Positions 48,387 to 49,511 of a DNA stretch of 64,000 bases are shown one piece after another. Origin of the DNA: Escherichia coli (lineage in GTDB: Bacteria; Pseudomonadota; Gammaproteobacteria; Enterobacterales; Enterobacteriaceae); assembly GCF_003334305.1 (NCBI RefSeq), contig NZ_QOWS01000019.1; one strand, 5' to 3'. Both the position numbers and the translations under genes were made by a program. A model generated the notes under the pieces. The model was not told where the DNA came from. It saw nothing but the letters and a program-made list of their open reading frames with translations, and made no database searches. Every line of letters starts with the position of its first letter. Position 1 is the stretch's first letter.

Positions 48387-48647
48387 ATGGATGAAGAAAG
48401 GGTGTTTTCACTCAGCTATGAACAACTGACCCGGTTTGCGGAAAAACGCATCCGGGAATGCAATCTGGACAGCCAGGGCGTAACTTATCTCTGCGAGTCA
48501 GCCAAAGCCGGAGCTGTGCTGATCTTCTGGCATGAACTGGCCATAAATGGCTATGCCTCAATGAATGCCATAAAGAGACAGGAGATCATTGACGCCGACC
48601 ATCAGCGCCTCAGAAAGCTCATCTGGCCGGAGGATGACTGGAAATGA
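48387..48647 (+). CDS. Hypothetical protein, first gene of an unrecognised two-gene cassette
   Basis: 86-aa ORF whose stop overlaps the start of the next gene (ATGA); no family recognised. Confidence 0.45.
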   Translation: MDEERVFSLSYEQLTRFAEKRIRECNLDSQGVTYLCESAKAGAVLIFWHELAINGYASMNAIKRQEIIDADHQRLRKLIWPEDDWK

Positions 48648-49234
48648 CTCAGAGCCGCCGACCGTCGCCACTGCAGCGAAGAATGCTGATTGTGCTGGCT
48701 GCCCTTGATGAAAAACGGCCAGGACCCGTGCTGACGCGGGACATAGAACGGGTGCTGGAGCGAAGCGGGGAAGCCCCAGTCTACGGGCCAAACCTGCGCG
48801 CCTCCTGCCGTCGTCTGGAGGATGCCGGCTGGCTGCGTACCCTGCGCGCTCCGAACCTGCAGCTGGCAGTGGAGCTGACGGACGCCGGCCGGGCCGTGGC
48901 ACAGCCTCTGCTGCTGGCAGAACAGGACCGCCTCCGGGCAGAACAGCGTGCGGCAGAAGTCGTCGTACTGCCGCTGGTCCCGGCAGCAGGTCTGCCCGCA
49001 GATGGCACTTCTGCCACTGATCTGGCGGTGCAGCTGAACGGCATAACGTATCAGGCCTGCCGTGGGGATTTTGTGGTGCATCTCGACGGCAGCACCTGTC
49101 TGCAGTTATGGAATAAAGAAGGCAGGGTGGTACGCCGGGAGGGCGATCCGCTGGAAGTGGCGCAGTGGCTGCAGGCCTGTCACGATGCAGGAATGGAGGT
49201 TCGCGTACAGATAAATGAAAGTGCCGCTCCGTAA
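48644..49234 (+). CDS. Hypothetical protein with possible N-terminal winged-helix domain, second gene of the cassette
   Basis: 196-aa high-GC ORF (N-terminus RRMLIVLAALDEKRPGPVLTRDIERVLERSG); its 3' half recurs in decayed form at 40250-40573. Confidence 0.5.
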   Translation: MTQSRRPSPLQRRMLIVLAALDEKRPGPVLTRDIERVLERSGEAPVYGPNLRASCRRLEDAGWLRTLRAPNLQLAVELTDAGRAVAQPLLLAEQDRLRAEQRAAEVVVLPLVPAAGLPADGTSATDLAVQLNGITYQACRGDFVVHLDGSTCLQLWNKEGRVVRREGDPLEVAQWLQACHDAGMEVRVQINESAAP

Positions 49235-49253
49235 GAACACGCCTGTGCACGGT

Positions 49254-49511
49254 TTACACATCATCCCATGGTGGCAGCCGGTTAACTTTCCTGCGCCCCC
49301 AGTAGATAAACCACATTGCACATCCCCAGGAAATGCCCCATAAGCCCCCCGTCAGCACCGTGACCTGCCAGAACGGCATAAAGGGTAATGGCGGAAGCCG
49401 GATACCCAGCCGCCAGAGAATACACAGAAGAGGAGGGGCATAATTGCTCCGCCACATCTTTTTGCTGTCCATCAGGGCAATGGCCCGGGCTTTTTTCTGC
49501 TCAAAGGTCAC
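49254..49511 (-). CDS. Small membrane protein (unrecognised), internally deleted relative to the copy at 40591-40899
   Basis: 85-aa ORF with one hydrophobic helix; the paralogue at 40591-40899 carries an extra 31-aa hydrophobic segment. Confidence 0.4.
   Translation of the reverse strand: MTFEQKKARAIALMDSKKMWRSNYAPPLLCILWRLGIRLPPLPFMPFWQVTVLTGGLWGISWGCAMWFIYWGRRKVNRLPPWDDV

Follow-up and report, generated by a model that had tools for sequence, protein, structure and literature searches.

The two adjacent genes ydfA and ydeA, found at positions 48387-49234 of a 64,000-nucleotide stretch of Escherichia coli DNA (contig NZ_QOWS01000019.1; the whole stretch is called the window below), are read here as a self-contained, autorepressed regulatory operon of enterobacterial conjugative plasmids that is able to drive downstream cargo, a reading to which we give about an even chance of being correct. 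In this model YdeA would be a DNA-binding protein that dimerises through the long helix following its wing, binds the 21-bp AAATCAT-N7-ATGATTT repeats lying over the ydfA promoter and, when bound to them, represses its own operon. YdfA, made from the same messenger RNA by coupled translation, would be the partner of YdeA, acting either as a co-repressor or anti-repressor modulator, or as a ligand of the C-terminal β-domain. Transcription from the ydfA promoter could continue into downstream cargo, and the cassette would then be a portable regulated promoter, placed at the site where plasmids swap defence and bacteriocin genes.

Layout of the locus and identity of the genes

The window represents a ColV/ColIa-type IncF virulence plasmid resembling pS88 (PMC3438092), and the features that make up the cassette are the following.

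48215-48262, plus strand: left cassette boundary, with GC-rich inverted repeats GATCC..GGATC and then GCGCGG..
48268-48386, plus strand: putative promoter/operator region of ydfA-ydeA, with four copies of ATMTGATWWT and a predicted sigma-70 promoter
48294-48312: operator-like site O2, AAACCATATCTGATATTATTA at 48293-48313, about 94 nt upstream of the ATG
48330-48350: operator-like site O3, a perfect inverted repeat AAATCAT-N7-ATGATTT whose right arm contains the predicted -10 element
48387-48647, plus strand: ydfA, an open reading frame (ORF) of 86 aa; acidic product, predicted three-helix bundle
48644-49234, plus strand: ydeA, an ORF of 196 aa with a predicted winged helix at the N-terminus of its product

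The segment of about 48215-49237 is the minimal conserved unit of the cassette, because the flanks differ from locus to locus and the homology ends after the ydeA stop codon. An earlier first-pass annotation of the window, made from the sequence alone, had described an unrecognised, translationally coupled cassette of two GC-rich genes, and its observation and its interpretation each hold in part. Both ORFs lie where it placed them and overlap by ATGA; moreover, a GGAGGA Shine-Dalgarno sequence for ydeA sits within the 3' end of ydfA. This arrangement fits the proposed coupling, and a ydfA homologue stands directly upstream in 22 of the 25 loci whose ydeA is complete. The high GC content is a property of ydeA (0.58-0.68 in 300-nt windows, versus 0.35-0.45 in the flanking colicin genes), and not of ydfA (about 0.49). 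Nor is the cassette unrecognised, since ydfA and ydeA are named ORFs of ColIb-P9, R64 and pS88, annotated as "hypothetical", and their co-transcription with ibfA has been published (PMC12111858). The annotation could assign no function to the pair; the named genes likewise lack an assigned function and belong to no family of Pfam, NCBIfam or PADLOC, and no characterised family, of plasmid housekeeping or otherwise, claims YdfA or YdeA. In the literature searched, no function, domain analysis or operator description was found for ydfA/ydeA. A 2026 genome-wide association study on IncK2 plasmids reports a plasmid "ydeA" as an L-arabinose exporter of the major facilitator superfamily (PMC12987596), which is probably a name collision with the unrelated chromosomal ydeA of E. 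coli, an arabinose exporter.

Predicted structure of YdeA and YdfA

The alignment of the YdeA family reveals up to four parts: an almost invariant N-terminal stretch of 90 residues, a variable linker that is missing from the common 169-aa variant, a conserved C-terminal block of about 70 residues and, in some Klebsiella, Citrobacter and Enterobacter plasmids, an extra extension of 120-220 residues. AlphaFold2 was applied to a long-form relative of 410 aa, which is 70% identical to the window protein over the shared 196 aa, using an alignment of 29 sequences, and the resulting model had a mean predicted local distance difference test score (pLDDT) of 87.7. It contains a winged helix (helices 11-26, 33-42 and 50-62, wing strands 66-70 and 76-80), a 25-residue helix (82-106) that follows the wing, a low-confidence linker, a domain at 129-192 composed of five strands, one helix and one more strand, and an all-helical extension of about 210 aa (211-398) found only in long forms. 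By homology to this model, the window YdeA would begin with a winged helix (about 1-80) and a long helix (about 80-105) and, after the variable linker (about 105-125), end in a small β-rich domain (about 126-196) that contains one helix. AlphaFold2 was also run on the window YdfA and YdeA joined into one chain, with a paired alignment as input. In this second model the YdeA elements agree with those of the long form, and YdfA forms a three-helix bundle (helices 11-24, 34-55 and 61-79; pLDDT mostly 75-94 over the helices).

The modelled YdeA thus has the three helices and β-hairpin wing of a winged helix-turn-helix fold. With the window model as query, Foldseek returned PadR/LmrR, MftR-DNA and RTP structures at probability 1.0 and target template-modelling scores (TM-scores) of 0.5-0.7, and the YdeA family profile weakly matched the recognition helix and wing of MarR and IdeR/DtxR in the PDB (E 0.013-0.07). 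By its predicted fold, YdeA belongs to the PadR/MarR-like winged-helix class, with no sequence-profile membership in Pfam MarR, PadR, HxlR or a related family (best Pfam E 0.016-0.23). The winged-helix-like start that the first-pass annotation had seen in the larger protein is therefore borne out by AlphaFold2, Foldseek and weak profile matches, and structure prediction, one of the checks which it had proposed, also yielded the three-helix bundle of YdfA. The best Pfam match of the window YdeA was AbiEi_4 (E 0.057, not significant); in PADLOC-DB 2.0 the only match was JetA, which covered 49 residues of the winged helix at E 0.0037. Residues 20-90 of YdeA are also matched by phrog_19460 (E < 0.001), a PHROG of unknown function. 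PDB searches with single YdfA or YdeA sequences gave nothing useful.

In AFDB50, searches returned only family members, named YdeA or uncharacterised, and one entry labelled "Helicase XPB/Ssl2 N-terminal domain-containing protein". The latter, K7QUJ3, is a long-form YdeA relative of 344 aa, 81% identical to the long-form query L004. To judge by this label, a Helicase XPB/Ssl2 N-terminal domain may be present in the extension that long forms carry at their C-terminus; the short form encoded in the window has no such extension. The possibility that the extension exists as a separate downstream gene in short-form loci, which would have given a Rosetta-stone link, was rejected, as no match was found. 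An EF-hand-like match of YdfA to photoproteins (profile against PDB, E 0.03) was judged to be due to chance, the loop positions not being conserved in divergent YdfA.

Phased inverted repeats at the predicted ydfA promoter

The alignment shows that about 170 nt of non-coding sequence ahead of ydfA is common to seven loci with unrelated upstream genes, and homology among these loci starts at the left boundary (48215-48262). A structured RNA or known RNA family at this boundary was considered and rejected, as there was no Rfam match and the fold energy of the hairpin was unexceptional (z = -1.2). Within the common segment, ATMTGATWWT occurs at 48268, 48300 and 48342 on the plus strand and at 48365 on the minus strand, so that four of the 13 matches in the whole window fall within 107 nt upstream of ydfA. 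A sigma-70 promoter (ATAACA-16-TATGAT) is predicted at 48321-48348. The O3 repeat is the single match to AAATCAT-N7-ATGATTT in the window, where 0.05 would be expected by chance, and it lies at -57/-58 from the ATG in all 22 loci compared. In relatives, O2 is an extended palindrome that is conserved throughout, with at least 9 of 14 arm positions kept in 22/22 loci.

Across the 22 loci, 21-bp inverted repeats occupy three phased positions, at -131, -95 and -58 from the ATG and 36-37 bp apart, and these sites are kept in 20-22 of the loci, including those with a YdfA only 35% identical. The arms of the promoter-proximal site carry 1.65 bits per position versus 0.71 for its spacer (21 distinct sequences), and those of the distal site 1.58 versus 1.02. 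A palindromic operator-like sequence is thus present at the operon's own promoter, as in winged-helix repressors, and its binding by YdeA is predicted. In the window itself, a 37-nt deletion at 48286/48287 has taken away the distal repeat, AAAATCAT-N7-ATGATTTT, which most other plasmids keep, and this loss could alter regulation of the cassette on the window plasmid. An independent prediction placed the transcription start 69 nt upstream of the ydfA ATG (PMC12111858), and that promoter would overlap the middle site, O2.

Regulation of ydfA by Fur was considered and rejected, since the best upstream match reaches 12/19 positions versus 16-17/19 for the best sites elsewhere in the window. In pS88, transcripts of both ydfA and ydeA were detected and tended to fall, not rise, in iron-poor media (PMC3438092), which argues against Fur repression of ydfA-ydeA.

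Distribution, pairing and selection

The pair is widespread on plasmids of Enterobacterales and belongs to a narrow protein family. A 1.3-kb segment comprising ydfA-ydeA-ybaA (ybaA being the membrane-protein gene that follows) matches 4092 PLSDB records, and the two-gene stretch matches at least 5000 of 72,556 PLSDB plasmids, at least 2618 of them with coverage of 80% or more. YdeA, searched by tblastn, was likewise found in at least 5000 of the 72,556 records, at least 4955 of the matches being near-full-length; the hosts are Escherichia, Klebsiella, Salmonella, Enterobacter, Citrobacter and others, and the plasmids are mostly conjugative. ColV-Ia-type records in PLSDB are up to 100% identical to the window pair and IncI-type ones 93-98%, and the gene order next to ybaA-imm-cia/cib is shared. 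At least 80% of the 1.3-kb segment is carried by 1162 of 5426 complete E. coli genomes, and among the matches listed, the only chromosomal ones concern a 97-nt DUF6404 stretch. In 1.84 billion proteins YdeA is matched by 216 representatives (50% identity), many of them fragments; for YdfA, 307 clusters (90% identity) were matched. When one genome per species was scanned, 19 loci were obtained, all from Enterobacterales or probable contaminant bins, and no phage homologue of the pair was detected by tblastn in 50,697 phage records.

The two genes are conserved as a pair in related plasmids, as the 22 of 25 loci mentioned above indicate, and the junctions in paired loci are 4-nt or 1-nt overlaps or gaps of at most about 14 nt. 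In locus L017, ydfA is diverged and possibly frameshifted, and in L025 an unrelated ORF stands upstream of ydeA and ydfA is absent. One chromosomal case was noted on a Serratia bockelmannii contig (L026, 5521-8081), where a ydfA homologue is followed by the first ~16 codons of a disrupted ydeA; it lies between a truncated and a complete umuD-like gene, adjoining a recombinase-like ORF, and looks like a chromosomal remnant of a plasmid-derived insertion.

The ratio of nonsynonymous to synonymous substitution rates (dN/dS) was computed against the window sequence, and the ranges given refer to comparisons with substantial divergence. It amounted to 0.27-0.40 for ydfA and, within ydeA, to 0.13-0.27 for the N-terminal domain, 0.10-0.45 for the C-terminal domain and up to 0.9 for the linker; by this measure both genes are under purifying selection. 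YdfA diverges far faster (35-100% identity) than YdeA (60-100%). In two Escherichia contigs (L008 and L023), ydeA is 96% identical to that of the window and ydfA 61%, and for L008 the synonymous divergence (dS) is 0.04 in ydeA versus 0.74 in ydfA. Recombination has therefore taken place between ydfA and ydeA, with a breakpoint at their junction, and ydfA alleles are being shuffled against ydeA.

Neighbouring genes in other plasmids and published experiments

The flanks of the pair vary by locus and often consist of defence or bacteriocin genes. In R64-type plasmids ydeA is followed by ibfA (PADLOC HEC-04, 7.5e-42) and a ProQ/FinO gene. Upstream of the pair stand a PDC-S06 ATPase gene in L006 (4.8e-286), Tmn in L021 (E = 0), a HEPN nuclease gene and a DUF4238 gene in L004, and a DUF3800 gene in L005, with similar ORFs in L011 and L016; downstream, a DpdC-like gene occurs in L011 and a Ppl-like fragment in L007. 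ColIb-P9 carries a DUF4238 gene and abi/ibfA upstream of the pair and ybaA-imm-cib downstream (cf. PMC8004404). The Klebsiella-type loci L003, L004, L014, L019, L021 and L022 have a third gene of 158-164 aa (MKVTEPGLNKLIDNLNTLICED...) on the same strand downstream of ydeA, whose product had no match in Pfam, NCBIfam, PADLOC or PDB. Homology between Klebsiella-type and E. coli-type loci stops right after the ydeA stop codon, and the ibfA-type locus keeps the 3' end of ybaA. Published IncI1 variants have substitution breakpoints within ydeA (PMC8004404), and a recombination breakpoint lies inside ydeA in the window too.

Experimental information comes from the IncI1 plasmid pUA1135, in which reverse transcription polymerase chain reaction (RT-PCR) placed ydfA, ydeA, ibfA and the proQ-like gene on one transcript (PMC12111858). 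In the same study, deleting ibfA alone restored phage growth (efficiency of plating, EOP, 0.94), and phage interference was better with the whole operon (EOP 0.01) than with ibfA under its own promoter (EOP 0.05) (PMC12111858).

The ybaA gene, the colicin genes and the second copy

Before the pair, the window contains the iro genes, a 3-deoxy-D-arabinoheptulosonate 7-phosphate (DAHP)-synthase-like gene, cvaA-cvaB-cvaC-cvi, dehydrogenase fragments and an acetyltransferase gene; after it come ybaA-imm-cia, yacC-yacB-yacA, repA1/copB and finO. The features relevant to the region adjoining the cassette and to its second copy are given below.

49254-49511, minus strand: ybaA (DUF6404 membrane protein), cassette-side copy, 85 aa, with a 90-bp in-frame deletion
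49555-49573: Fur-box-like site (16/19) between ybaA and imm, with a counterpart at 40981-40999 in the second copy
49640-49975: imm, colicin Ia immunity gene, beyond ybaA
49997-51877, minus strand: cia, colicin Ia gene
40218-40573, plus strand: ydeA pseudogene, matching 48857-49237 at 84-91%, in which codons ~72-196 remain
40591-40899, minus strand: ybaA, second copy, with a full-length body; one T is lost near the 5' end and the ORF starts at Met14

The first-pass annotation had treated the small membrane gene as a member of the module, and had taken the module to be duplicated, with one copy intact and the other decayed. The decayed 3' copy of ydeA was found, with slightly wider limits (40218-40573) than the 40250-40573 first proposed, and a paralogue of the membrane gene does adjoin it, on the minus strand at 40591-40899; the remaining parts of the claim require revision. 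On self-comparison, 48857-49615 matches 40218-41041 at 84-93% identity, and a 22-bp deletion together with three in-frame stops makes the second ydeA a pseudogene. What is duplicated extends beyond the module as far as yacB-yacA, where 41052-41556 matches 53110-53615 at 97.4%; imm-cia-yacC has been deleted from the left (second) repeat copy. Judged from these matches, the decayed copy is one arm of a direct repeat of the IncI/IncF backbone (ydeA'-ybaA-...-yacB-yacA) and not a duplication of the cassette. The repeat brackets the colicin V operon (cvaA-cvaB-cvaC-cvi with the dehydrogenase fragments and the acetyltransferase gene) and has the appearance of a scar left when the ColV-ColIa region was put together by a cointegrate or recombination event.

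The membrane gene, moreover, does not belong to the module: it is on the opposite strand, has a Fur-box-like site of its own and is missing from Klebsiella-type and IncHI2 loci. Among the sampled loci, more than a remnant of ybaA accompanies the pair only beside the colicin Ia/Ib module (L001, L002, L005 and L027), and in the ibfA-type locus L006 the gene is cut to a 3' remnant. Neither ybaA copy in the window is intact. Full-length YbaA in IncI plasmids has 115 aa, 30 of which the cassette-side copy has lost through the 90-bp deletion, and the second copy is affected by the 1-nt deletion. The ybaA gene of ColIb-P9 (L027, 1659-1979) has a C-terminal frameshift, so that ybaA seems to be decaying repeatedly, having been damaged in three different ways. 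YbaA is matched by phrog_31022 (E < 0.001), a PHROG of unknown function; this match and that of YdeA to phrog_19460 were the only ones with E below 0.001 when the four proteins were searched against Pfam, NCBIfam, PADLOC and PHROGs. The identification of ColIb-P9 abi/ibfA with ybaA was rejected, since abi/ibfA encodes a different membrane protein, of 114 aa, on the other side of the pair.

In pS88 the ybaA transcript rose 5-9-fold under iron limitation or in urine, which was not statistically significant (PMC3438092), and the Fur-box-like site between ybaA and imm fits this non-significant rise under iron limitation. Matches of 16-17/19 to the Fur box were also seen at 51988, 46163, 41736 and 40081; strong boxes adjoin cia and the DAHP-synthase-like gene, one lies ahead of cvaA, and that at 46163 separates cvaC/cvi from the first dehydrogenase fragment. 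The dehydrogenase fragments are three short consecutive ORFs (147, 134 and 88 aa) at 46233-47586, corresponding to three "predicted dehydrogenase" entries of pS88, and they look like pieces of one disrupted gene.

Weighing the regulatory reading and its alternatives

Several observations weigh against an autorepressed regulatory operon. At E <= 0.001 no Pfam family was assigned to the window YdeA or to any of 29 relatives scanned singly, and NCBIfam and PADLOC gave no significant family for YdeA or 29 family members. YdfA had no match in Pfam, NCBIfam, PADLOC, PHROG or PDB, and neither a structural nor a sequence match was obtained for the β-domain of YdeA and the long-form extension, for which the Foldseek output was swamped by winged-helix matches; about half of the protein mass of the system is thereby left unexplained. 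The conservation of the repeats could partly reflect another binding protein, because these AT-rich repeats resemble the Fur box in composition. Finally, there is no cargo after ydeA in the window, because ybaA converges on ydeA, and since nothing is transcribed downstream of ydeA in the window and in ColIb-P9, control of cargo cannot be the sole role of the cassette.

A more far-reaching form of the regulatory reading may be formulated, which we consider unlikely as a whole. In this form the cassette would be a hitherto undescribed portable switch anchoring the main defence/bacteriocin exchange site of IncF, IncI, IncK and IncHI2 plasmids. YdeA would hold the promoter off via three phased operators, and the diversifying YdfA would sense an invader- or entry-derived signal and relieve repression, turning on the downstream cargo; the C-terminal β-domain, together with the long-form extension, would constitute a new effector-binding module.

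The alternatives start from the same observations. The pair could itself be a component of phage defence, counter-defence or entry control, for example a sensor/regulator that switches on neighbouring defence genes once infection or conjugative entry has occurred, or a stand-alone defence pair. The recurrence of defence genes among its neighbours (L004, L005, L006, L007, L011, L021 and ColIb-P9) speaks for this, but such co-location is to be expected of any conserved backbone gene that borders a hotspot, and in the window the neighbours are bacteriocin genes. Moreover, most of the phenotype is obtained with ibfA alone under its own promoter, deleting ibfA alone restores phage growth, no PADLOC model exists for either protein, and the pair has no homologue in the phage records searched. 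A defence role of the pair itself is therefore improbable in our estimation.

A toxin-antitoxin-like addiction module, in which one product inhibits growth and the other neutralises it, the winged helix of YdeA autoregulates the operon and the module stabilises the plasmid or an adjacent island, would account for two small genes with an ATGA overlap and palindromic operator-like repeats upstream. Three-helix-bundle antitoxins exist, an example being epsilon of epsilon/zeta, and the weak match of YdeA to the winged helix of the AbiEi_4 antitoxin points the same way. The pair is also very common on plasmids and often adjoins toxin-antitoxin pairs (yacAB/ParDE, VapBC), its small partner evolves faster than the DNA-binding one, the two genes recombine independently, and published RT-PCR demonstrates co-transcription across their junction (PMC12111858). 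However, no toxin or antitoxin family was found in Pfam, NCBIfam or PADLOC, and neither YdfA nor the C-terminal domain of YdeA had a PDB match. The all-helical bundle predicted for YdfA is unlike the RNase-type small toxins of systems with reversed gene order, and the C-terminal domain of YdeA shows no enzyme-like match. Truncated or decayed copies of ydeA persist with no obvious compensating neighbour, and L025 has ydeA without ydfA. Taken together, these data make an addiction module quite unlikely.

A plasmid-maintenance role, with the phased repeats as a centromere-like or incompatibility site, a TubR/ParR-like winged-helix binder and YdfA as adaptor, would suit the iterated phased inverted repeats upstream of the operon and the position of the pair in IncI plasmids, where it has the replicon on one side and the par/integrase genes on the other, but it is very unlikely, given that no ParA, ParM or TubZ nucleoside triphosphatase is linked to the pair, its flanks differ in almost every locus, plasmids with the pair carry separate complete par systems, and in the window one repeat is gone and the second copy is dead.

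Whichever role applies, the pair counts among the more frequent uncharacterised genes of resistance and virulence plasmids with clinical importance, and it marks a site of exchange for phage-defence genes (ibfA/HEC-04, PDC-S06, Tmn, DpdC-like, ColIb abi) and colicin genes. Control of neighbouring cargo by the cassette, if it occurs, would explain how newly acquired plasmid defence genes come under regulated expression. Both proteins merit the definition of families, and the confusion of names with the chromosomal ydeA should be put right.

Comparison with known systems

The regulatory operon proposed here may be compared with three groups of known systems. Small first genes that overlap a larger gene encoding a DNA-binding domain, with palindromes over the promoter, are also characteristic of the reversed type II toxin-antitoxin pairs HigBA, MqsRA and HicAB, but YdfA shows no RNase-type fold or family. 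Like the cassette, the AbiE type IV toxin-antitoxin and abortive-infection system is a two-gene operon of mobile elements, situated near defence genes and autoregulated through an N-terminal winged helix, that of AbiEi; for YdeA the autoregulation is a prediction. The partner, however, is an 86-aa helical protein encoded upstream and not the AbiEii nucleotidyltransferase encoded downstream; the AbiEi_4 match is not significant, and no nucleotidyltransferase gene adjoins the cassette in the window. The third comparison concerns the N-terminal domain of YdeA, whose predicted fold is shared with PadR subfamily 2 (LmrR, PDB 3f8b/4esf), MarR (1jgs/5h3r) and MftR-DNA (8ylg). In contrast to these repressors, YdeA adds a variable linker and an unmatched β-rich C-terminal domain, to which long forms add the helical extension of about 210 aa, and it comes with a dedicated small upstream gene, which PadR and MarR repressors do without. 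Summarizing, the system is best filed as a winged-helix autoregulator standing outside the established families.

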